Assembly (NCBI GenBank): GCA_016866735.1
Contig: VGLL01000001.1
Coordinates: forward strand, 1 to 60,671
DNA from: Candidatus Shapirobacteria bacterium
Lineage (GTDB): Bacteria > Patescibacteriota > Microgenomatia > VGLL01
DNA length: 60,671 nt
Direction of reading: 5' to 3'
Under the pieces are notes generated by a model, which worked only from the letters and a program-made list of their open reading frames with translations, ran no database searches and was not told the DNA's origin. Both the position numbers and the translations under genes were made by a program. This document shows, in pieces, positions 3-13,579 of this stretch (within the stretch, counting starts at the first letter, position 1; each line of letters opens with the position of its first letter).

Positions 3-614
3 TTTAAAACAAGACTTCTCGGAGAATACAATCAATATAATTGCCTGGTGGCGATTGCCGTGGCGAAAAGTCTGAGAATTGCTGACGAAGTGATTAAAAA
101 GGCCCTGGCTGATTTTTCTGGAGTTTCTGGCCGAATGGAAGAGATCTCCGAGGGGCAAAATTTCGGAGTTATCGTTGATTTCGCCCACACTCCAGCCGCC
201 TTTGAGGCAGTTCTTAGCGCGCTGCGTGGCCGGGTAAAAGGCGGGATTATTCACGTTTTCGGCTGCACTGGCGAGCGAGACAAGAGTAAGCGGCCAATGA
301 TGGGAGAGATTTCCGCTCACCTAGCTGATAAAATAATCTTAACTTGCGAAGATACATATCACGAAGATCCCGAGAGAATTATTAAAGAAATCGGAGTAGG
401 GGTAAAAAGTGGGGGAAAAGTTTTAGATAAGGATTATTGGATTATGACAGATCGAGAGGAGGCCATTGGGCGGGCAATTAAAATGGCAAAAAGAGATGAT
501 TGTGTTCTAGTCACCGGTGTAGGACACCAAAGAACATTGAATCTTGGCGGTCGGGAGACGCCCTGGTCGGATCAAGAAACTTGCAGGCGATTTTTAAAAG
601 AGAGGGTATCATGA
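3..614 (+). CDS. murE: UDP-N-acetylmuramoyl-tripeptide synthetase MurE, C-terminal part (5' end lies outside the window)
   Basis: The frame is open from the window edge (FKTRLLGEYNQYNCLVAIAVA). Mur-ligase C-terminal motifs are present: SGRMEEI, DFAHTP, VFGCTGERDKSKRP, DREEAI. It heads a mur cluster. Confidence 0.8.
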   Translation, partial: FKTRLLGEYNQYNCLVAIAVAKSLRIADEVIKKALADFSGVSGRMEEISEGQNFGVIVDFAHTPAAFEAVLSALRGRVKGGIIHVFGCTGERDKSKRPMMGEISAHLADKIILTCEDTYHEDPERIIKEIGVGVKSGGKVLDKDYWIMTDREEAIGRAIKMAKRDDCVLVTGVGHQRTLNLGGRETPWSDQETCRRFLKERVS

Positions 615-4105: not shown

Positions 4106-5227
4106 ATGGAGAAAATAAACTTAGCGGTTGTTTTTGGAGGCAAGTCATTAGAACACGAAGTCTCGATTGTTTCGACTTTTCAGGCCTGGGAGTGGATCAA
4201 TCCACAAAAATACAACCGCTACTTAATTTATATTGACCAGAATAACCGTTCTTATTTGTGCCCCTCGCTGAGGAAAGAAAATTATCAGCAATTTATTAAA
4301 AAAGTCCTGGAAGAAAAGAGGGGAATTGAGTTTATCTCCGGAGGCTTTCGTTACTCTCGGTCCTTTTTGAAAAAGGAAGTCGGTATTGATGTTGCCCTGC
4401 TTATTTTGCATGGCGCCTATGGCGAGGATGGCCGAGTTCAGGGGATGCTTGATTTTTACGGAATTCCTTTTACGTGCTCGGGCGTTTTGGGTAGCGCCCT
4501 GGGGATGGATAAGGTAGAACAAAAGAATATATTCGAAAAGCTTGGTTTGCCAATTACTCCCTATTTATGGTTTTATGACTTTGAGTACCAAAGTAGCCCC
4601 CAGAAAATTAAACTAGAGATTAAAAAGTGCCTCAAATATCCCCTTTTCGTTAAGCCCGCTAATGGTGGTTCAAGCGTTGGCGTTACAAAGGTGAAAGAGG
4701 AGCGAGGCTTAGATCAAGCGGTCCAAAAGGTTAGTCAATACGACCACAAGATTTTGGTTGAACAGTCTGTTGGGGGGGTTGATATTAATTGCTCGGTGAT
4801 GGGTGGATATGAGTTGCGAGTGACTCCGTGCGAGCAGCCGCTTTCGGAGGACGAGTTCCTCTCGTTTAGAGAAAAATACCTGAAGGGAGGAAAGACTAAG
4901 GGAATGGCAGGCTTGTCGAGGATTATCCCGGCTCCGATCCCAGACGAGGTGGCCGGCCTCGCTCAAGAAATGGCCAAAAAAGTCTTTAGGGAACTCGGTT
5001 GCTGGGGAATGGCAAGAATGGACTTCCTCTATCAGAAAGAAACGCAAAAGATTTACCTTAATGAAATTAATACCATCCCCGGTTCACTAGCTTTTTATCT
5101 ATGGCAAGCCTATGGCTTGACGCCCAGTCAGATGGTTGACGAGCTGATTAAATTAGCGTTGGAGCGCGAGGAAGAAAGGGCCCGCCTTAATTATCACTAC
5201 CAAAGCGAAATTCTGAATCAGAAATAG
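4106..5227 (+). CDS. ddl: D-alanine--D-alanine ligase
   Basis: VVFGGKSLEHEVSIVS, LHGAYGEDGRVQGMLDFYGIPFTCSGVLGSALGMDK and an ATP-grasp C-terminus (MARMDFLY..IYLNEINTIPG). Confidence 0.9.
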   Translation: MEKINLAVVFGGKSLEHEVSIVSTFQAWEWINPQKYNRYLIYIDQNNRSYLCPSLRKENYQQFIKKVLEEKRGIEFISGGFRYSRSFLKKEVGIDVALLILHGAYGEDGRVQGMLDFYGIPFTCSGVLGSALGMDKVEQKNIFEKLGLPITPYLWFYDFEYQSSPQKIKLEIKKCLKYPLFVKPANGGSSVGVTKVKEERGLDQAVQKVSQYDHKILVEQSVGGVDINCSVMGGYELRVTPCEQPLSEDEFLSFREKYLKGGKTKGMAGLSRIIPAPIPDEVAGLAQEMAKKVFRELGCWGMARMDFLYQKETQKIYLNEINTIPGSLAFYLWQAYGLTPSQMVDELIKLALEREEERARLNYHYQSEILNQK

Positions 5228-6369
5228 TGATCGGGGAGTTCGTTTTCTATGAGAATGACCGTTGGTGGTCGTAAAAGCGGGGTTAAGACAGTCTCGTAGG
5301 TTTGATTTTTTTCTACAAAGATAATTCTCTTAGCGCCTTTGGCACCTCGAGCGAGAGATTCCCTATTAGTTTTACCGACGATTAGAAAAATATCGCAGAT
5401 TTTGGTCGCTTCAGCGGCGATCTCGCAATTGATTTCGTTCTGTTTTTTGCCAAACTCGATCATTCCCGGCGTAATAATAATCTTTTGGTAGGCTTTGTAT
5501 TTAGCCAGTTCATCTAGGGCTTTTCTAAACCCAAGAGGGTTGGAATTATAGGAGTCGTCAAGATAAACCAAATCGCGACTTACCCTCTTCGTGGTTAGTC
5601 GGTGTGCTGGCGGTGCAAATAGTTTAATTCTTTTTTTAATTTGGCTGGGAGAAATATTTAGTTGCGCGCCAATTGATAGACAGACTTTTGCGGGATCGAT
5701 TATTTCGTGGTCTTTTGTTGGCAAGAAGAGCCTTTGTCTGTCGGTAATAAAAGGTACAAGCTCCATCTTAGTTTGCCGAATGTTTTCCAAGGTTTTAAAG
5801 CGTTCTAGGTGCATCCAGCCGATACTGGTAATAACCCCAAAATTTGGCTTAACCAGCTGGCAAATTGCCTTAATATCTCCTCTTTGATAGGCGGCGGCCT
5901 CAATGATGAGGACTTGTTGCCTATTATTAATCTTACGTAAAACCAGAAGGGCGATACCGATTTGGGTATTGATATTGGCTGGCGTTTTGGCTACTTGATA
6001 TTTATGCTCTAAAACGTAGGCGAGCATTTCCTTAAGAGTAGTTTTGCCGTAGCTCCCCGTGATAACTATTTTTATTAGTTTTGGATAAAACATTAGCTTA
6101 ATCTTGGCCAGAAAAATGATAATCTCTTTTGTGGGGCTGGAGATTTTATCAACTAGGGAGTTGGCGAAACTGACTGCTCTTTTCTCCCCGAATAAGGGGA
6201 TAAATAAAAATGAGGCGACGAGGGTAAGAATCGTTCTTGTAGTCCAGCGGAGTTTATTTTTCCTTTCTTCAAGATCCTGAATCCGATACCTTTTTAGCCA
6301 ATCGAGGTAACGCTCGTTTTGGTACTCTTCAAGTTGGAGCAGGTAAAGCAGTTTCCTTAGAGTTTTCAT
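5218..6369 (-). CDS. murF: Mur ligase family protein, MurF-like (atypical hydrophobic N-terminus)
   Basis: ITGSYGKTTLKEM P-loop; a Mur-ligase middle and C-terminal pattern (DDSYNSNP, PPAHRL). It lies in the mur cluster. The N-terminal 100 aa are not canonical. Confidence 0.6.
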   Translation of the reverse strand: MKTLRKLLYLLQLEEYQNERYLDWLKRYRIQDLEERKNKLRWTTRTILTLVASFLFIPLFGEKRAVSFANSLVDKISSPTKEIIIFLAKIKLMFYPKLIKIVITGSYGKTTLKEMLAYVLEHKYQVAKTPANINTQIGIALLVLRKINNRQQVLIIEAAAYQRGDIKAICQLVKPNFGVITSIGWMHLERFKTLENIRQTKMELVPFITDRQRLFLPTKDHEIIDPAKVCLSIGAQLNISPSQIKKRIKLFAPPAHRLTTKRVSRDLVYLDDSYNSNPLGFRKALDELAKYKAYQKIIITPGMIEFGKKQNEINCEIAAEATKICDIFLIVGKTNRESLARGAKGAKRIIFVEKNQTYETVLTPLLRPPTVILIENELPDHYF

Positions 6370-7052
6370 TTATTTATAAAGTTGGCAATTAGATTTGCAA
6401 TTTCTTCTGGGTTTTGCTGAAACACGAAATGGTTACCGGAAACAATTTCTAACCTGCTATTGGGAATTAACTGGTGAATGTTTTCTCCTAAATCTGGGGA
6501 CAATTCATTGTCTTCTTTCCCCCAAATAACAAGAGTAGGAGATTTAATTTTGGCATAAATCGGTCGTAAATCCTCTTTAACGATATTTTTGAAAAGCGGC
6601 CGGAGCCGGCCAGCGTTTTTGTAATCCCGACTGACCAGAAATGAGCGGACGACTCGCTTAATCGGCGTAGGGATAAGCTCTTTAAAGCGATACCAGATTT
6701 TCGGTTCCGGAATCCCGGAGGGGGCGATTAAGATTAATTTGGTAATGATTTTAGGGTTTTGATAGGCAACCAGGGTAGCGATTTTTCCGCCGTATGAATG
6801 GCCAACCAAAGTCACCGGCGTAATTTTTTTCTTTAGAAGCCAGTATTTAACCGCCAAGGCGTAATCTTTGGAGGAACTGATCTTTTGTGGCAGTTCGCTT
6901 TGGCCAAATCCTGGAAGTTCTATTAAAAAGAGCTTGCGCTGTTTGAACAAAAAGGGGACTAGCGGCGTAAAAGAATGACAGTCTTGCTGCCAGCCATGGA
7001 TAAAGACAATCGGAGGTTTCCCTTCTCCGAACTCAAGAAAATTGAGCTCCAT
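6366..7052 (-). CDS. alpha/beta-fold hydrolase
   Basis: IVFIHGWQQD, a nucleophile elbow GHSYGG and a C-terminal GNHFVFQQNPEE. It overlaps the murF-like start by 4 nt. Confidence 0.75.
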   Translation of the reverse strand: MELNFLEFGEGKPPIVFIHGWQQDCHSFTPLVPFLFKQRKLFLIELPGFGQSELPQKISSSKDYALAVKYWLLKKKITPVTLVGHSYGGKIATLVAYQNPKIITKLILIAPSGIPEPKIWYRFKELIPTPIKRVVRSFLVSRDYKNAGRLRPLFKNIVKEDLRPIYAKIKSPTLVIWGKEDNELSPDLGENIHQLIPNSRLEIVSGNHFVFQQNPEEIANLIANFINK

Positions 7053-7093: not shown

Positions 7094-8125
7094 ATGGCTT
7101 TGTTTTTGGGACTTTTAATTTTCTCTTTTACCGTTACCAGCATCCTCATTATTCCCTTTATTAACATTCTCTACAAAATTAAATTCTTGCGGGCAGAACA
7201 GAAAACAACCGACTTCCAGGGCACACGAACTTCTATTTTCGACAGGCTTCATAAACACAAGGCGGGAACGCCGGTCGGGGGCGGCTTGCTAATTATTCTT
7301 CTGGTCTTTCTTCTTTATGTTTTTCTTTTCCCCCTTCTCTCTTATCTCGGGGTTTATATTACGGCCGTTTTCCCCATTAAAGAAGAACTAAATATTCTCT
7401 TTTTTACCTTTATCTCCTTTGGTATTTTGGGGCTCTACGATGACGTGATGAAATTCTTTGGTTTCCGGCGGACGGGATTCTTTGGCCTAAAGATGCGCCA
7501 CAAATTCGCTATTCAGTGGATTCTTGGCCTCATCATTGCCGTTCTCTTGGCGCAAAATCTGAAAATTAACTTTATCTATATTCCTTTCTTTGGCGTTTTG
7601 AAGTTAGGATGGCTTTATTTGCCTCTGGCCGCCGCCATCATTGTCGCTTTCGCGAATGCCTTTAACATTACGGATGGCCTGGACGGGCTTTCTTCGGGGC
7701 TTTTGATGATCTGTCTTTTTGCTTTTTGGTTCATTTCCCATACTGTTTTGGACACGCCGCTTTCGGTTTTCTTGGCTCTTTGGATTGGATCTTTGATTGC
7801 CTTTTTATACTTTAACGTTTATCCGGCGCGGCTTTTCCTGGGCGATGTGGGCGCGCTTTCTTTCGGGGCAACGCTGGGAGTGATTGGTCTTTTAATAGGG
7901 AAAGTTGCTGCCTTAGTGGTTATTGGGGGAATCTTTGTGCTCGAGGCCACGACTAGCCTCTTGCAGATGCTTTCCAAAAGATTTTTGGGGAGAAGACTCT
8001 TTGCTTGTGCGCCGCTACACCTTTTCTTGCAGAATAAGGGATGGGAAGAGCCAAAAATCGTCATGCGTGCTTGGTTAGCCGGCATCATGCTGGCCATTTT
8101 CGGTCTATGGCTGGCAGTGATATAA
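7094..8125 (+). CDS. mraY: phospho-N-acetylmuramoyl-pentapeptide transferase
   Basis: Polytopic membrane protein with NAFNITDGLDGLSSG, YFNVYPARLFLGDVGALSFG and a KTPVGGG-like loop (AGTPVGGG). Confidence 0.92.
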   Translation: MALFLGLLIFSFTVTSILIIPFINILYKIKFLRAEQKTTDFQGTRTSIFDRLHKHKAGTPVGGGLLIILLVFLLYVFLFPLLSYLGVYITAVFPIKEELNILFFTFISFGILGLYDDVMKFFGFRRTGFFGLKMRHKFAIQWILGLIIAVLLAQNLKINFIYIPFFGVLKLGWLYLPLAAAIIVAFANAFNITDGLDGLSSGLLMICLFAFWFISHTVLDTPLSVFLALWIGSLIAFLYFNVYPARLFLGDVGALSFGATLGVIGLLIGKVAALVVIGGIFVLEATTSLLQMLSKRFLGRRLFACAPLHLFLQNKGWEEPKIVMRAWLAGIMLAIFGLWLAVI

Positions 8126-8127
8126 GA

Positions 8128-8143
8128 CCTGCCATCGGGCAGG
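8128..8143 (+). terminator. short GC hairpin just after the mraY stop (weak terminator candidate)
   Basis: CCTGCC-ATCG-GGCAGG is followed by AATTTAAAATT. There is no clean T-tract. Confidence 0.35.
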
Positions 8144-8229
8144 AATTTAAAATTCAAAATGGAAAATGTAGAATTGAACACTTTGATAATTTGAATTATT
8201 GAAGTGTTGTGAGATTGAATTAGCGAACC

Positions 8230-8934
8230 ATGATCGAGAAGTCGCCTGCGATTGAACAGCTGCTTTACCAATATACTCATCTTCCGATTGGCGGAAAGAA
8301 GATTAGATGCCCTTATTGGATGGACAAAATAAAAAAGGGGATTTGCGGGCCATCTGGCGGGAAGGGGAGTCCTGAGCAGATTGTTGAGGCCACTTTGATG
8401 GCAGCCAAGAAAGAGGGTATTAATTTAGACGAGCTTTCTACAAAACAAATAAAAGCCTTCATGAAGAGAAACCGGATTGGTATTGATTGTTCGGGTTTGG
8501 CTTTCAATCTTCTCAACGTTCTGGACAAAGAAAAAGGCGGCAAAGGCCTAGCCGAGAAGATTCCGGGAGCAAAAGGGAAATTTCTAGTGAGAGCTAATGT
8601 AAGAATGCTAACCGATCGAAACGTTTCCATGCCGGTTAGTTCGGTTTCCGATATTAAAATAGGCGATATGATTAGGCTCCGAGGCGGCAGGCATATCGCA
8701 GTGGTGGCTGCAGTGAAAAAAAGCCGTAGCGGGAAAATCACCGAAATTACTTACACTCATTCATCACCCAAAACAGCAGTTAGCGGGGTTCACTCGGCGA
8801 AGATCAAGGTTAAGGACGAAGCCAGGAGATTAGAAAATCAGGAGTGGCTGGAGGAAACCAAAGACGACAAAAACTATGGCAAGTTTGCCTTTTCTCCCCT
8901 ACGCGGCGATGGAGTAAGAAGGTTCAAGCTATAA
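8230..8934 (+). CDS. NlpC/P60-like (Cys/His peptidase-like) protein, putative cell-wall hydrolase
   Basis: GIDCSGLAFNLL (candidate nucleophile Cys) and GDMIRLRGGRHIAVVAAV (candidate His) are spaced as in NlpC/P60. It sits in the dcw context. The N-terminal 80 aa are uncharacterised. Confidence 0.4.
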   Translation: MIEKSPAIEQLLYQYTHLPIGGKKIRCPYWMDKIKKGICGPSGGKGSPEQIVEATLMAAKKEGINLDELSTKQIKAFMKRNRIGIDCSGLAFNLLNVLDKEKGGKGLAEKIPGAKGKFLVRANVRMLTDRNVSMPVSSVSDIKIGDMIRLRGGRHIAVVAAVKKSRSGKITEITYTHSSPKTAVSGVHSAKIKVKDEARRLENQEWLEETKDDKNYGKFAFSPLRGDGVRRFKL

Positions 8935-8939
8935 TTTCT

Positions 8940-9092
8940 TTACTTCTCTTCTTCGATCAGCAAGACCCGAGGCGGGTCAAGGCTGACTATCTCCATTTCT
9001 GCCCCACAGTTCTCGCACTCGATAATTTCGCCGACCTCGGCATCTCCGGAGACGAGAACTTCTTTCTGACAGTCAGGACATTTGACAGTCAT
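8940..9092 (-). CDS. LysW-like zinc-ribbon protein (amino-group carrier protein family look-alike, non-canonical C-terminus)
   Basis: MTVKCPDCQKEVLVSGDAEVGEIIECENCGAEMEIVSLDPPRVLLIEEEK aligns by eye with Thermus LysW (CPECGAEL....ELGE.V.CEDCGAELEV..LDP.RL). It ends in EEEK rather than EDWGE. I start it at the internal Met; the 64-aa track ORF would run into the neighbouring gene. Confidence 0.55.
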   Translation of the reverse strand: MTVKCPDCQKEVLVSGDAEVGEIIECENCGAEMEIVSLDPPRVLLIEEEK

Positions 9093-9113
9093 ACTGAATG
9101 GTATAATTGAAGC

Positions 9114-9989
9114 ATGGCTCAAAAAATTAGTCAAGAGGCAAGCTTAGCTTGTCAAGTGGGGAATACCAGAGAAGTTTTAGTCGAAGGAATAATTTTGAAG
9201 AGAGAGGACGAAAATCCCACCGGTTCAATTAAGGACAGGGGAATTTCTTATCAAATTGATCAAGCAGAGGAAAGAGGTTTGAGTGATTTGGTTCTTTCTT
9301 CTTCGGGAAATGCGGCCATCTCCGCGGCCTATTTTTGCAGGCGGGCAGGAATTAATCTATCTATATTTGTTTCCCCTAAAATAAGTAAAGTAAAGCTAAA
9401 GAGGATAAGGGGTTTGGGAATCACGGTTTTTCAAACTCCGCGGCCGATTAGCGGAGCGATAAGATTTGCCAAAGAGAACGGTTTTTTGAATTTGAGACCA
9501 TCCGCTGCCGCAGATGGGCCCGTTGGTTACCAATCTATTGCCGCGGAGATATTTGATAGGTGGGGGAAAATTGATTCGATTTTCTTACCTGTTTCCAGTG
9601 GCACAACCTTGGTGGGTGTCGCCGAAGGGTTTAAAAAACTAGGTTTTCTGCCGCAAATTCATGCCGTCCAAACTGCGGCTATTTGCCCCATTGCCGGTAA
9701 GTTTGACCAAGACTTCGTTCCCGTCAAGTCTAGTCTAACTTCCGCCTTAGTGGCCAAATTCTTGCCCAGAAAGAAACAGGTGTTAGAATTAATCAGAAAG
9801 TCAGGTGGCTGGGGGTGGGCAATTTCCGACGAAGAAATTACCCAAGCCGATGTTTGGCTCAAAGAGAGGGGAATAAGTACTTCCTTTGAGGGGACAGCGG
9901 CCCTGGCTGGAGTTTTTAAGGCAAGACGGAAGCATTGGTCTTTAGGAGAAAAGATTGTTTGCCTTTTAACTGGAAAGAAATATGATTAG
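9114..9989 (+). CDS. fold-type II PLP-dependent enzyme (threonine synthase / cysteine synthase / serine racemase superfamily), short form
   Basis: KREDENPTGSIKDRG (PLP-lysine motif), SSGNAA and a PVSSGTTLVG glycine-rich loop. At 291 aa it is shorter than a canonical ThrC. Confidence 0.65.
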   Translation: MAQKISQEASLACQVGNTREVLVEGIILKREDENPTGSIKDRGISYQIDQAEERGLSDLVLSSSGNAAISAAYFCRRAGINLSIFVSPKISKVKLKRIRGLGITVFQTPRPISGAIRFAKENGFLNLRPSAAADGPVGYQSIAAEIFDRWGKIDSIFLPVSSGTTLVGVAEGFKKLGFLPQIHAVQTAAICPIAGKFDQDFVPVKSSLTSALVAKFLPRKKQVLELIRKSGGWGWAISDEEITQADVWLKERGISTSFEGTAALAGVFKARRKHWSLGEKIVCLLTGKKYD

Positions 9990-11301
9990 CGAACCCATAT
10001 TCTACTTAACTAATGATGTTAGCCACGGAATTGGCGTAGAAAAGTTACTGCCAAATTATCATATTATTTGCATTGACGATCACCCGTTAGTTACCTCTCT
10101 AATAGAGGCTGGGGTAAGGGTTTTGTGCCTCGAGAGACTTTTAAAAAGGAAAAATATAATCTTTCGGAGTAGCGGCAAGCTTTTAGAGCAGCCTGAAGTG
10201 GCAAACTATATAAAAGAAAATTCGGGTAGTAAGACGCCGAATATTCTTTATTTTAAACCCTCACCCAAAATTGACTCGCTTTGTCGAAAAAGGGGTTACC
10301 GGCGACTGGGCAACACGGCGTCATTGAATAGGATTTTTGAAGACAAAATTTCGTTTTACAAGATTTGCCACACCCTTGGGTTAGCTATTCCGCCGGGCCA
10401 AGTGGCTAACTTGGCTAAGGCAGACTTTCGAGATTTAAAAGAAAAGTATGGCCCAAAAGTAGTGATCCAATTTGGTCGGGGTTGGGCGGGATCAACCACT
10501 TTCTTTATTACCGATGCAGACCAGTTTAATAGACTAAAGTGCCGTTTCGGTAATTTGGAAGCGAAAATAACGAAATTTATAAACGGAAAAACTGTTCTTA
10601 ATAATTGTTGCGTCACTAGAAACGAGGTTTTAATAGGCCAGCCAGCGGAGCAGATACCAAGGATTTCGGATTTTACCGCCAAAGAAGGGGCAACCTGCGG
10701 CCGTATTTGGCCGGCGAGCCTTAATCGGGATCAAGTTTTACAGCTTGAAGAGATAACAAGGACCACTGGTGAATATATGCGCCAAAAAGGTTATTTGGGT
10801 TATTTTGGCCTTGATTTTCTTCTTTCCGAAGAGGGGGAAATCTATCTTTCCGAAAATAACGCTCGCTTTACCGCCTCCGCACCGTTTTACAGTAAGCTGG
10901 AGATAAAGAATGGGAGCTTGCCAATGGCGCTCTACCATATTTCGGTATTTCTCGGTGGTCCAGAAAATATGATAAAGTGGCAAAGAAAAGAGGTAACAGG
11001 GAGTGAAATCGTGGTTAGAAATAATCGTTCCTTGCCGATCACGATTAAGAAAGATTTTCAACCAGGGATATATAAGTTATGCAATTCCCTACCAAAGCCG
11101 GTGCGATCGGATTATGATGTTGGCGGCGCAAAGTCTGAGAGCGAGTTTTTCTTAACGGCAGCCGCTTACGGCAGAATCGTCAATCCCGAGATGGAGCTGG
11201 CCCGCCTAGACACTTTTGCATCCGTTAGAGAAAAAGATGGTAAACTTGCTGATTGGGCTATTAATTTGTTAAAACGTCTTAAAAAAGACCTAGCGGGCTG
11301 A
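9982..11301 (+). CDS. ATP-grasp domain protein (unknown ligase)
   Basis: C-terminal ATP-grasp pattern GYLGYFGLDFLLSEEGEIYLSENNARFTAS and a central VVIQFGRGWAGSTTFFI segment. It overlaps the PLP gene by 8 nt. Confidence 0.6.
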   Translation: MISEPIFYLTNDVSHGIGVEKLLPNYHIICIDDHPLVTSLIEAGVRVLCLERLLKRKNIIFRSSGKLLEQPEVANYIKENSGSKTPNILYFKPSPKIDSLCRKRGYRRLGNTASLNRIFEDKISFYKICHTLGLAIPPGQVANLAKADFRDLKEKYGPKVVIQFGRGWAGSTTFFITDADQFNRLKCRFGNLEAKITKFINGKTVLNNCCVTRNEVLIGQPAEQIPRISDFTAKEGATCGRIWPASLNRDQVLQLEEITRTTGEYMRQKGYLGYFGLDFLLSEEGEIYLSENNARFTASAPFYSKLEIKNGSLPMALYHISVFLGGPENMIKWQRKEVTGSEIVVRNNRSLPITIKKDFQPGIYKLCNSLPKPVRSDYDVGGAKSESEFFLTAAAYGRIVNPEMELARLDTFASVREKDGKLADWAINLLKRLKKDLAG

Positions 11302-11306
11302 TGTAG

Positions 11307-12398
11307 ATGGCTATTTTGAAATCGCAGAGAAAAAAAATCGACTGGCCGTTACTGGTTCTTTGTCTGGGAGTAGTTCTCTTCGGACTCTTAGCGATTCTTG
11401 ACGCCTCGGAGGCGATCGCCCTAAGGGACTTTGGCGACAGGTTCTATTTTTTCCGTCTCCAGGCGAGCTGGGCGGCGATAGGCTTTTTTTCCATGATTGT
11501 CTTAAGCAGGATAGATTATCATCTAGTAAGCAAGTTTTCATTTCCCCTACTTCTGGTGGCCACTCTTTTCCTGGTGGCCGTCCTATTGCCCGGAATTGGC
11601 GTTAAAGCTCTTGGCGCTCGGCGATGGCTAGGGCTTGGCCCTATTGGATTTCAGCCTGCCGATCTGGTTAAGCTTAGTCTCGTAATTTACCTTTCCTCGA
11701 TTCTTAGCAAAAGAAAAAGCCTGGCGATGGTTTTAATAATTCTTTTTCTTTTTGGTGGTTTGATAATGGCCCAGCCGGACCTAGGAACAACGGCGATCGT
11801 TTTTGGCATCGGCCTTAGCCTTTTTTTTGTTGCCGGAGGCTCTTTGTCGCATCTTTTTGTTCTGGGCGGCCTAGCAAGTTTTTTTGGCTTAATGATGATA
11901 TTAACCTCGACCTACCGCCGGTTCCGCCTGTTAACCTTTCTCGATCCGACAATTGACCCCCTGGGTATTTCCTATCATTCCCGCCAAATACTTTTGGCTC
12001 TTGGCTCGGGTGGGTTTTTTGGCTTGGGGCCAGGTCAGTCCAGGCAGAAACTTGAATACTTGCCAGAAGTGGCGACTGATTCGATATTCGCGGTGGTTGC
12101 CGAGGAGATGGGATTTTTGGGCGGGGCGATTTTGATATTGGCTCTTTTTCTAATCATTGCGCGGTTGTGGCGGGTTGCCAGCAATGCACCGGACGAGACA
12201 GGCAGGCTTTTGGTTGTGGGCGTGGCCTCTTGGGTGGCGATACAAACTATAGTTAATTTGGGGGCAATGACTGCCCTTTTTCCCCTCACTGGAGTGCCAT
12301 TGCCATTTGTTTCATATGGCGGTTCTTCTTTGGTCCTTCTTTTGAGCGGAGTTGGTATTGCCCTGAACGTTTCAGAAAAGAAAATTAAGCAAAAATGA
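11307..12398 (+). CDS. ftsW: SEDS-family peptidoglycan glycosyltransferase FtsW/RodA
   Basis: Polytopic protein with QPADLVKLSLVIYL, PDLGTT, TDSIFAVVAEEMGFLG and PLPFVSYGGSS. Confidence 0.88.
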   Translation: MAILKSQRKKIDWPLLVLCLGVVLFGLLAILDASEAIALRDFGDRFYFFRLQASWAAIGFFSMIVLSRIDYHLVSKFSFPLLLVATLFLVAVLLPGIGVKALGARRWLGLGPIGFQPADLVKLSLVIYLSSILSKRKSLAMVLIILFLFGGLIMAQPDLGTTAIVFGIGLSLFFVAGGSLSHLFVLGGLASFFGLMMILTSTYRRFRLLTFLDPTIDPLGISYHSRQILLALGSGGFFGLGPGQSRQKLEYLPEVATDSIFAVVAEEMGFLGGAILILALFLIIARLWRVASNAPDETGRLLVVGVASWVAIQTIVNLGAMTALFPLTGVPLPFVSYGGSSLVLLLSGVGIALNVSEKKIKQK

Positions 12399-13579
12399 CG
12401 GACAAAACAATTGTCATCACCGGTGGCCATCTCACTCCTGCCCAGGCAGTCATGGAGGAGTTGCAAAAAGGAGACTGGCAAATTTACTATTTCGGGCGCG
12501 AGTTTTCTCTTGAGGGCAGTCGAATTCCTTCCGTGGAATCGCAAGTTGTTCCTCGAATGGGAGTGAGGTTTATTGGTTTCCCCGCCGGCCGGCTCCAGCG
12601 GCGGCTTACCAGAGAAACTATACCGGCACTTTTGCGCATTCCCGCCGGTTTTTTTAGTGCTTTTTCTAAGCTTTGGCAGCTAAGACCCAGAGTGATCCTT
12701 TCTTTCGGTGGATATGTTTCGGTGCCGGTAGTTCTGGCTGGCTGGTTGCTAAGAATTCCCATTTTGACTCACGAGCAAACAAGAGTGTTCGGTTTAGCCA
12801 GTAAAATCAACTCCTTTTTGTCCAAGAAAGTCTTGGTGTCGTATTCAGAAAGTATAAAATTTTTTTCAAAGAAAAAAGTCATTTTAACCGGCAATCCCTT
12901 AAGGGAGGAAATATTCAACTATCAGCTATCCCGCCAAAGGCCCGCTTCGCAGCGAGACGAGCGAGGCTCGCCAGGGGCGGCGACTATTAGCAATCAGCTA
13001 TCGAGAGAAAAGCTGCCACTAATTTATATTACTGGCGGCAATCAGGGAGGACAGGTTATTAATCGGGCAGTCGAAGAGATTCTGCCACAGCTTTTAATTA
13101 AATATCGCCTTGTCCATCAGGTAGGGGGGCTGGATTATGAAAAGTTCAAAGCTCACCAAGTCGGACTTGGACAAAGTTCAAAGCTCAAAACTCCTCTCGG
13201 GGAGCGATATTTTGTTACGTCATATGTTGAGGCAAAAGATATTGGGTGGGTTTTAAATAGCGCCAGCCTGGTGGTTTCTCGGGCGGGGGCAAACATTACG
13301 AGCGAGTTGGCGGCTCTTGGGAAACCAGCGATTTTAATTCCCATACCCTGGAGCTCTCAAAATGAACAGGAAGAGAATGCCAAAGCCTTAGTTGAAGCAG
13401 GGATAGCCGTTATCCTTGAAGAGGGGCAACTTAGTGGGAAAAAATTATTACGGGCGATTGAGATGATGATGACTAATCTCTCAAGATACGAAAATTGCGG
13501 TAAAAAGACTAAGGCCCTGGCCTTACTTGGCGCGGCGCCGCGAATCGTCGCCGAAATAGAAAAATGTCTAGAGAGATAA
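12395..13579 (+). CDS. murG: UDP-GlcNAc:lipid I N-acetylglucosaminyltransferase MurG (carries a 24-codon insertion)
   Basis: ITGGHLTPAQAV, LTHEQT, GNPLR, ITGGNQGG, VVSRAGANITSELAALGKPAILIP and QNEQEENA. Confidence 0.88.
   Translation: MTDKTIVITGGHLTPAQAVMEELQKGDWQIYYFGREFSLEGSRIPSVESQVVPRMGVRFIGFPAGRLQRRLTRETIPALLRIPAGFFSAFSKLWQLRPRVILSFGGYVSVPVVLAGWLLRIPILTHEQTRVFGLASKINSFLSKKVLVSYSESIKFFSKKKVILTGNPLREEIFNYQLSRQRPASQRDERGSPGAATISNQLSREKLPLIYITGGNQGGQVINRAVEEILPQLLIKYRLVHQVGGLDYEKFKAHQVGLGQSSKLKTPLGERYFVTSYVEAKDIGWVLNSASLVVSRAGANITSELAALGKPAILIPIPWSSQNEQEENAKALVEAGIAVILEEGQLSGKKLLRAIEMMMTNLSRYENCGKKTKALALLGAAPRIVAEIEKCLER
12921..13002 (+). repeat. 10-bp direct repeat (ATCAGCTATC) bounding a 62-bp GC-rich imperfect-palindrome insert, in frame inside murG
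   Basis: ATCAGCTATC occurs at 12921-12930 and at 12993-13002, exactly 72 bp apart. The insert CCGCCAAAGGCCCGCTTCGCAGCGAGACGAGCGAGGCTCGCCAGGGGCGGCG... has complementary ends (CCGCC/GGCGG). Confidence 0.6.

Follow-up and report, generated by a model that had tools for sequence, protein, structure and literature searches.

The 60,671-nt stretch examined here (the window: GenBank contig VGLL01000001.1 of assembly GCA_016866735.1, Candidatus Shapirobacteria, positions 1 to 60,671 of the forward strand) carries, in the murD slot between mraY and ftsW, four genes that encode a 234-aa protein with conserved Cys and His residues, a 50-aa LysW-fold zinc ribbon, a fold-type II pyridoxal 5′-phosphate (PLP) enzyme and an ATP-grasp enzyme. 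We find that these genes are conserved together as a module beside peptidoglycan-precursor genes and that the module and canonical MurD have complementary distributions across the Microgenomates. That the MurD step is either replaced or fed by the gene set we regard as about as likely as not. More tentative is the specific proposal that residues 1 and 2 of the stem peptide are built off the nucleotide, on the LysW-fold protein as a carrier and with a tRNA-dependent step, replacing the reactions of MurC, MurD and MurI; the details of the lysine tether that we describe below are put forward with the same reserve.

The module was traced through 301 genomes of the class (Microgenomates), in which genomes are labeled G, families f and loci L, and in which the source assembly (1.0 Mb in 127 contigs, 96% complete) is G000. 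Homologues of the module proteins come from Candidatus Microgenomates, namely Shapiro-, Gottesman- and Woesebacteria. An orthologue of the ATP-grasp gene is present in 51 of the 301 genomes, and one of the PLP gene in 49 of those 51 and in no other; the two module genomes without a PLP orthologue are fragmentary assemblies. More than 30 loci, drawn from eight or more families, show these genes again with their relative order and orientation kept; protein identities are 31-60%. The earlier note on this DNA, which was made from the sequence alone, had called for a check of whether the ribbon, PLP and ATP-grasp genes are conserved as a trio beside dcw genes in related genomes, and the trio is indeed co-conserved there, beside peptidoglycan-precursor genes; the unit, however, also includes the upstream gene that the note had labeled NlpC/P60-like, which adjoins the other three in most loci, and so comprises four genes. 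Three gene orders are found. In Form 1, represented by this window and by families f14, f20, f24, f38 and f52, the order is mraY, hydrolase (the 234-aa protein), carrier on the opposite strand, PLP enzyme, ATP-grasp enzyme and ftsW, with two exceptions: the ATP-grasp gene lies elsewhere in G005, and the hydrolase gene is not adjacent in G158. In Form 2 (Gottesmanbacteria, f36), located away from mraY and ftsW, the hydrolase gene is followed by a divergent MurD-like ligase, the carrier on the opposite strand, the PLP enzyme and the ATP-grasp enzyme. Form 3, from one Woesebacteria genome, runs from an aminoacyl-tRNA transferase (ATE)-like gene through a MurC-like gene to the hydrolase, carrier and PLP genes, with the ATP-grasp gene 5 kb on, before murF, and with mraY and ftsW directly adjacent to each other.

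The module stands where MurD is missing. The mraY-ftsW slot is fully assembled in this genome and is occupied by the module, and a Mur_ligase_M search finds only three Mur-ligase genes in the genome (MurC-like, MurE and MurF); the MurD model TIGR01087 (cut-off 212 bits) reaches no more than 74.3 bits anywhere in the genome, on the MurC-like gene. Canonical MurD occurs in none of the 51 module genomes, the single-contig genome G286 among them, and in 211 of the 250 others (Fisher p = 3e-33, although this and the other Fisher values overstate independence because few evolutionary events lie behind the distribution). Family f36, with 18 genomes, lacks the transferase, and a divergent MurD inside the module was confirmed in 15 of them, 13 by hidden Markov model (HMM) at 4e-44 to 3e-57, all below the cut-off, and two by tblastn; the copy scored in G035 reaches 188 bits against 212. 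This divergent MurD retains the P-loop, HLD, SK(S/A)T and LSPA motifs, its best Protein Data Bank (PDB) matches are MurD, and canonical MurC is kept in the six f36-type genomes examined. Separately, the canonical murD open reading frame (ORF) of G120, G178, G180, G245 and G292 is 730-950 aa long, and MurD appears to be fused to another domain in these genomes.

The ATE-like gene divides the module genomes exactly. It is present in 33 of the 301 genomes, which are all the module genomes outside f36 (33 with, 0 without), and in neither the 18 genomes of f36 (0/18) nor any genome without the module. The module thus exists in two mutually exclusive versions, one with the ATE-like gene and a divergent MurC-type ligase, which we call MurC*, and one with the divergent MurD. 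The ATE-like protein matches the NCBIfam arginyltransferase model NF002346 at E 4.7e-14 and 52 bits, against a cut-off of 170, and Pfam ATE_C (cut-off 25) at 24.5 bits, with 29.3 in one orthologue and 17.8 in another. In this window its gene and that of MurC* (611-2817) lie 7 kb upstream of the module. The gene sits in a mur operon, coupled to murE and MurC*, and adjoins the MurC-like gene in all 11 loci that show both, which come from six families and three unplaced loci.

MurC* itself passes neither the MurC nor the Mpl equivalog cut-off. The protein in this window scores 244.6 bits on TIGR01082 (murC; cut-off 335.1) and 213.1 on TIGR01081 (mpl; cut-off 388.7), and four orthologues score 242-288 and 195-249, respectively; with the same two models, MurC from the divergent-MurD family and from canonical genomes gives 345-432 and 184-198 bits, respectively. 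In a maximum-likelihood tree, 12 MurC* sequences form one clade with 100/100 support and a stem of 0.92. The clade includes the MurC-like protein of the Woesebacteria genome, and the ordinary MurC of its family-mate, which also has MurD, is placed elsewhere. The divergence is not shared by MurE, whose identity to canonical genomes is 45%, against 29% for MurC, and which is no more diverged than expected. Many MurC* proteins are named Mpl by the Joint Genome Institute (JGI). In metagenomes, MurC*-type ligases also occur fused to MurB, in proteins of 726-786 aa (P0181, P0210, P0230, P0231, P0234, P0237 and P0240). These fusions tie MurC* to UDP-MurNAc; no ATE-MurC* fusion is found among the 120 homologues listed, only MurC*-MurB fusions.

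The ribbon is encoded within an ORF at 8940..9134 on the minus strand, in which an internal ATG at 9090-9092 opens the 50-aa protein MTVKCPDC...LLIEEEK. It matches PF21344, the LysW globular domain, well above the cut-off of 27 bits, and its best PDB match is Thermus LysW (3wwl, E 8.5e-9, residues 3-46, tail excluded), followed by the LysW structures 5k2m and 3vpb; the Thermus, Thermococcus and Sulfolobus proteins span E 8.5e-9 to 5e-5, the tail again lying outside the alignments. The curated lysW models are both failed (TIGR01206, 43.2 against 53.2 bits; NF041070, 42.1 against 75), and their alignments cover the globular part only, at model positions 1-42 and 1-44. The close resemblance to LysW reported in the earlier note therefore stands for the globular domain and the nearest structures and does not extend to the NCBIfam lysW families. 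The four Cys residues (CPxC...CxxC) are kept in the ribbons from 23 loci. In 22 of the 23, the protein ends in [LIVP]-x-E-[ED]-K and in one it ends in EEKG, and none has the EDWGE tail or C-terminal Glu of LysW. The tail Lys, last residue in 22 ribbons and penultimate in one, is the only invariant lysine of the protein. We propose that the ribbon is a carrier and that this Lys is its attachment point. For LysW, the earlier note cited attachment to the C-terminal Glu by an ATP-grasp ligase (LysX/ArgX); here this is not supported, since the ribbon tails end in Lys in 22 cases and in Lys-Gly in one, and the ATP-grasp partner has no RimK/LysX match. The view of the earlier note that this is not the classical lysine or arginine route of LysW is borne out by the neighbors, which are mur and fts genes. 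A homologue search with the 50-aa ribbon returned 11 close relatives only, such searches being insensitive for short proteins. In every related locus (L026-L053), the carrier gene runs against the dcw (division and cell wall) genes, which otherwise share one direction. In the Gottesmanbacteria form it also overlaps the divergent MurD gene, 3′ end to 3′ end. The arrangement may have a regulatory meaning, through antisense or colliding transcription.

The PLP enzyme belongs to the PALP family (167.5 bits) and carries the motif NPTGSIKDRG, in which the Schiff-base lysine K40 of S-x-K-D is invariant. Among solved structures, ThrC proteins of the short type are nearest to it (2zsj, E 6e-18). All NCBIfam ThrC, dehydratase and CysK models score it far under their cut-offs, the best ThrC model giving 107.6 bits against 358. 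Aligned to ThrC of Aquifex, Thermus and M. tuberculosis, it lacks about 48 N-terminal residues, and the ThrC segment NSVNP-x-R-x-EGQK, which we take to be the phosphate site, is replaced by RPSAAADGPVGYQ. With these scores and with both the segment and the N terminus lost, an identity as threonine synthase was rejected. Also invariant among the orthologues, besides K40, are S62-S63-S64-G65-N66, N126-L127 and P159-V160-S161, and R128 is nearly so; a supposed in-frame stop in one orthologue proved to be merely its natural stop codon. We propose that the enzyme is an epimerase acting on the free α-amino-acid end of a tethered Glu. In this genome, ddl and murF are present though no Alr, MurI or D-amino-acid aminotransferase was found, and the module PLP enzyme could be involved in D-Ala supply. 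A second, weaker PLP relative (107-121 bits with the module profile) occurs in families f36 and f8 and in one f13 genome, for example at G163:C39:21097-21954. The ORFs that contain it are about 620 aa long in most of these genomes, which suggests a fusion protein; one is 312 aa.

The ATP-grasp enzyme belongs to an uncharacterized family, with structural likeness at the superfamily level only. It passes PF02655 (ATP-grasp_3), its score on NF005096 ('biotin carboxylase', PRK06524) is 109.6 bits against a cut-off of 684, and it has no match among the RimK/LysX models of Pfam and NCBIfam. A PDB sequence search with it gives nothing (E > 0.1), and its homologues are all Microgenomates proteins named 'hypothetical' or 'ATP-grasp domain' protein. 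Its AlphaFold2 (AF2) model has a predicted local distance difference test (pLDDT) score of 94.3; a Foldseek search of the PDB with this model places biotin carboxylase, PurK, PurT and PurD on top, at query-normalized TM-scores of 0.54-0.66 and 11-15% identity, and LysX/RimK is not among the top 50 matches. With no model match and a fold nearest to biotin carboxylase and PurK, a LysX/RimK identity was rejected; the grouping with a characterized unrelated family that the earlier note had envisaged was not found either, the enzyme falling in no characterized family. We propose that it is a carboxylate-amine ligase that loads Glu onto the carrier. ATP-grasp matches in G136, G196, G113 and G030, genomes with canonical MurD, were set aside as stand-alone paralogues (24-29% identity, no carrier or PLP genes). 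Likewise, G268 and G280 were rejected as module carriers, as their matches belong to another peptide-modification system, in which the ATP-grasp protein is accompanied by ATPgrasp_ST and 7TM-transglutaminase proteins. In these two genomes, both of them Woesebacteria without MurD, an ATP-grasp paralogue of about 780 aa lies beside an ATPgrasp_ST/Zn-protease and a 7TM-transglutaminase-type membrane protein (L092, G268:C4, 5795-10097; L093, G280:C10, 1189-5655), and in G268 a GNAT acetyltransferase gene also adjoins it.

The 234-aa protein has no Pfam, NCBIfam or significant PDB sequence match, and a profile search against the PDB yields MepS/Spr alone, aligned over the Cys motif with E 0.16-0.35. 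Its orthologues share invariant PYW, GKG, GxDCSG, GxH and YxHS(S) motifs with Cys87, His155 and His177. In the AF2 model (pLDDT 92.3), Cys87 opens a helix (87-101) and the two His residues lie on successive strands, positions in the secondary structure that would fit a papain- or NlpC/P60-like arrangement. The protein is probably a cytoplasmic cysteine hydrolase, and we propose that it releases the product from the carrier. A homologue with 37% identity lies in G050, between a methyltransferase-like gene and murE (L054, G050:C8, 6714-12015). This genome is a family-mate of a module genome and has no MurD, ATP-grasp, PLP, carrier or ATE-like gene; its murE beside the homologue lacks the N-terminal domain, and mraY and ftsW are directly adjacent.

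How these parts may work together is suggested by the two versions of the module. The either-or occurrence of the ATE-like gene and the divergent MurD points to two alternative ways of making the L-Ala-D-Glu bond. MurD links UDP-MurNAc-L-Ala to the amine of D-Glu, and an aminoacyl-tRNA transferase would join Ala to that same amine. In that case a dipeptide would be what MurC* has to attach, and its divergence toward Mpl would be explained. If the ATE-like enzyme and the divergent MurD are alternatives, the four genes common to both versions would therefore provide D-Glu; since canonical MurD never co-occurs with these four genes, this D-Glu probably takes a tethered, non-standard form. A tether between the γ-carboxyl of Glu and the ε-amine of Lys would need an ATP-grasp ligase and a γ-glutamyl-lysine hydrolase, and it would leave the α-amino-acid end free for PLP chemistry while presenting an acceptor that resembles an N-terminal Glu. 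We infer that a γ-glutamyl-Lys tether meets all of these constraints. The distribution points to the core position-2 (MurD) step, and the unusual stem-peptide or cross-bridge residue given as an example in the earlier note is accordingly not the best fit.

In the pathway that we propose, the ATP-grasp enzyme would activate the γ-carboxyl of L-Glu and join it to the ε-amine of the C-terminal Lys of the carrier, after which the PLP enzyme would epimerize the tethered Glu to D-Glu through its free α-amine. The ATE/Bpt-like enzyme would add L-Ala from Ala-tRNA to the α-amine of the tethered D-Glu, which resembles the N-terminal Glu that such enzymes accept. The Cys hydrolase would then cleave the γ-glutamyl-lysine link and MurC* would join the preformed L-Ala-D-Glu to UDP-MurNAc, as Mpl does with a tripeptide, although these two steps may occur in either order; MurE and MurF would proceed as usual. 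In Gottesmanbacteria-type genomes, canonical MurC and the module-encoded divergent MurD would take the place of the transfer of L-Ala and of the MurC* reaction.

Several observations weigh against this pathway. All of its catalytic assignments derive from superfamily membership and distribution. The generic ATP-grasp fold is uninformative on substrate, no fold-type II PLP glutamate racemase is known, and a Foldseek search with the 234-aa model gives weak papain-like matches, none significant (best IdeS/Mac-1, E 8e-3, TM-score 0.23). The divergent MurD, its motifs being intact, may simply use free D-Glu. About 39 genomes have neither canonical MurD nor the module, and two of these, G050 and G041, still have mraY-ftsW, MurE and MurF; there are thus other answers to the MurD gap, or the gap reflects dependence on a host. 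The number of evolutionary events is small, with the divergent-MurD form confined to one family and MurC* to one clade. MurI, Dat (PF01063; class-IV aminotransferase) and Alr were not found in this genome, which is compatible with the proposed pathway but does not discriminate, because they are sparse across the whole class (15, 8 and 14 of 61 genomes, respectively, with Alr in some module genomes). Moreover, the ribbon is strongly acidic (isoelectric point 4.05, net charge -9.5) and its partner enzymes are basic, which is compatible with a carrier role but is not specific evidence for it because many proteins in this genome are basic.

Other explanations account less well than the carrier pathway for the pattern of ATE-like gene, MurD and MurC*. 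The ATP-grasp enzyme alone might displace MurD, with the PLP enzyme making D-Glu as a racemase of the free amino acid, the ribbon and hydrolase being accessory or regulatory and the ATE-like protein a FemX-type branch enzyme. ATP-grasp enzymes and Mur ligases do share acyl-phosphate chemistry, the PLP and ATP-grasp genes lie exactly in the murD slot, MurD is missing from 51 of 51 module genomes and there is no MurI or Dat here. Nevertheless, one family retains a MurD-derived ligase alongside the ATP-grasp enzyme, and this scheme leaves unexplained the strict alternation of ATE-like gene and divergent MurD, the divergence of MurC in exactly the ATE-bearing genomes, the conserved Lys-ending tail and the co-conserved hydrolase; we consider it unlikely. 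We think it less probable still that the ribbon works by classical LysW chemistry, the amine of a substrate being held on the γ-carboxyl of a tail Glu while the PLP enzyme makes a diamino or cross-bridge residue that the hydrolase releases. Such a scheme would suit the LysW fold, the acidic tail, the load-modify-release logic of the genes and their cell-wall context, but none of the 23 loci has the EDWGE tail with its terminal Glu, and the ligase does not resemble LysX. Additionally, a blocked α-amine would give the PLP enzyme no handle unless the substrate had a second α-amino center, and neither the MurD gap nor the ATE/MurC* pattern is explained. MurE also looks ordinary.

A salvage route, in which episymbionts import muropeptides from a host, the Cys hydrolase trims L-Ala-γ-D-Glu-X, MurC* re-attaches L-Ala-D-Glu, and the carrier, PLP and ATP-grasp proteins edit or repair, would be in keeping with the leaning of MurC* to Mpl, with a class generally without racemases, with the NlpC/P60-like motifs of the hydrolase (also seen in the recycling enzyme YkfC) and with MurD-less G050, which keeps only the hydrolase homologue, beside murE. 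It gives no role to a strictly co-inherited ATP-dependent ligase, PLP enzyme, carrier and tRNA-dependent transferase, however, and the canonical MurC and MurD-like ligase of the divergent-MurD family form a de novo layout, which makes salvage improbable in our view. Finally, there may be no precursor pathway at all, the mini-protein being a ribosomal peptide or regulator that the ATP-grasp enzyme modifies by graspetide- or RimK-like tailing, with an incidental location in the dcw cluster. ATP-grasp enzymes do modify peptide tails, and the class has ATP-grasp paralogues in unrelated peptide-modification contexts (those with 7TM-transglutaminase and ATPgrasp_ST proteins). Yet the linkage to mur genes survives three rearrangements, the complementarity with canonical MurD is perfect, and the carrier is a folded LysW domain rather than a leader-core peptide, so that this explanation appears very improbable.

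The genes at and around the module are listed in Table 1. The ORF table and the raw sequence agree with the earlier note in placing the ribbon, PLP and ATP-grasp genes between mraY and ftsW-murG, in the divergent transcription of the PLP gene 21 nt from the ribbon gene (9093-9113 separates the two start codons) and in the overlap of the PLP and ATP-grasp genes, which is 8 nt; the description of the PLP enzyme as a 291-aa fold-type II protein is matched by its length, motif and PALP score, and that of the 439-aa ATP-grasp protein by its ORF and an ATP-grasp_3 score above the cut-off. The 5′ part of murE, including the Mur_ligase_M portion, is on contig C29. From the ORF table, murA is present upstream of the module, between the MurC-like gene and ddl, and an ftsQ-like gene and ftsA lie farther downstream, past murG. 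Across the syntenic loci, mraY is 54-75% identical. The murF product is short at the N terminus, the model aligning only from position 76 on, and an α/β-hydrolase gene (6366-7052, minus strand) overlaps the start of murF; the same hydrolase-murF pair comes after the ATP-grasp gene in a Woesebacteria locus (L050, 11283-13543). A scan of 8100-11400 for promoters and terminators gave no excess over shuffled sequence.

Table 1. Genes of the module and its surroundings in the window, with the matches or remarks on which the names are based
Feature	Position	Strand	Match or remark
murE, 3′ part	3..614	+	TIGR01085, 216.8 bits across 193 model positions
ATE/Bpt-like aminoacyl-tRNA transferase homologue, 254 aa	611..1375	+	NF002346, ATE_C; remote matches
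MurC*, divergent MurC/Mpl-type ligase, 481 aa	1372..2817	+	TIGR01082, mpl; scores below cut-off
ddl	4106-5227		separate ordinary Ddl
murF	5218-6369	-	
mraY	7094..8125	+	PF00953, 104 bits; left border of murD slot
Cys-His-His protein, 234 aa	8230..8934	+	no family match; conserved motifs
LysW-fold zinc ribbon, 50 aa	8940..9092	-	PF21344, 53.4 bits
Fold-type II PLP enzyme, 291 aa	9114..9989	+	PALP, 167.5 bits
ATP-grasp enzyme, 439 aa	9982..11301	+	PF02655 (ATP-grasp_3), 26 bits vs cut-off 23.2
ftsW	11307..12398	+	PF01098, 299 bits; right border of murD slot; syntenic in related loci
murG	12395-13579		downstream of ftsW

In bacterial cell-wall synthesis, the MurC and MurD steps are considered both universal and essential, and they are viewed as targets for antibiotics. 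MurD nevertheless appears to be missing from a large clade of uncultured bacteria, and 33 of its genomes also appear to be without canonical MurC. The unrelated genes that are strictly co-inherited in place of MurD imply a different start of the stem peptide, and in the literature we found no description of the module or of the MurD gap in these bacteria. If the proposed pathway is true, LysW-type carriers would extend to cell-wall synthesis with the tether reversed, a Lys of the carrier taking the place of its Glu; core peptidoglycan assembly would become a further task of tRNA transferases of the ATE/Bpt type; and there would be a PLP-dependent route to D-Glu. The source of D-glutamate in racemase-less bacteria of the candidate phyla radiation (CPR) can now be addressed by experiment with six proteins, all small and soluble. 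Even at its least, as the claim of a conserved module whose distribution complements that of MurD, the finding is of use in annotation and in metabolic reconstructions, which now score these cell walls as 'incomplete'.

Among known systems, the module is reminiscent of the LysW/ArgW pathways (Thermus, Sulfolobus and Thermococcus, and the amino-group carrier protein (AmCP) of Streptomyces), in which a small acidic LysW-fold zinc ribbon is likewise encoded with an ATP-grasp ligase, a modifying enzyme and a hydrolase and the same load-modify-release logic applies. It differs from them in the -E-E-K tail in place of EDWGE with its C-terminal Glu, in a ligase that is not LysX/RimK-like, in the absence of LysZ, LysY, LysJ and LysK nearby and in a context of peptidoglycan rather than of lysine or arginine synthesis. 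The proposed polarity of the tether is also reversed, with an amine of the carrier holding a carboxyl of the substrate. An alternative route to D-Glu is provided by MurD2/MurL of Xanthomonas, in which the UDP-linked dipeptide is epimerized by MurL in an ATP-dependent reaction (PMC8788868). There, a divergent MurD lies beside novel partner genes, as in the divergent-MurD form of the module, but the partners are unrelated and include no carrier, PLP, ATP-grasp or tRNA-dependent enzyme, and this window has no MurD-type ligase.

The later steps also have parallels. Attachment of a preformed peptide by a MurC-family ligase is the reaction of Mpl, the ligase that adds a recycled tripeptide, L-Ala-γ-D-Glu-meso-diaminopimelic acid, to UDP-MurNAc, and MurC* scores nearly equally on the mpl and murC models, although its proposed substrate is a carrier-made dipeptide rather than a recycled tripeptide. 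Similarly, D-Ala-D-Ala is made off the nucleotide by an ATP-grasp enzyme, Ddl, and then added by MurF. Bpt and ATE1 take an aminoacyl group off a tRNA and place it on an amine, with a preference for N-terminal Asp or Glu in the acceptor. The ATE-like protein, a remote ATE_C/Bpt homologue, recalls these enzymes and those of the FemX type; it departs from Bpt and ATE1 in scores at or under the family cut-offs, in a gene located in a mur operon with murE and MurC*, and in a proposed acceptor that is a γ-tethered D-Glu rather than a protein N terminus. A parallel in gene content is the 4-amino-2-hydroxybutyrate (AHBA) pathway of butirosin, which has the same combination of carrier (BtrI), ATP-grasp γ-glutamyl ligase (BtrJ), PLP enzyme for the tethered amino acid (BtrK) and γ-glutamyl-cleaving enzyme (BtrG). 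The protein families are unrelated, and BtrI is an acyl carrier protein with a thioester tether, not a LysW fold. The bond that we propose has its counterpart in the system of the D-Asp ligase Aslfm and its racemase, Aslfm being an ATP-grasp enzyme that joins the ω-carboxyl of a D-acidic amino acid to the ε-amine of Lys. The products of these last two systems are a secondary metabolite and a cross-bridge, respectively, whereas the module described here would serve the core stem peptide.

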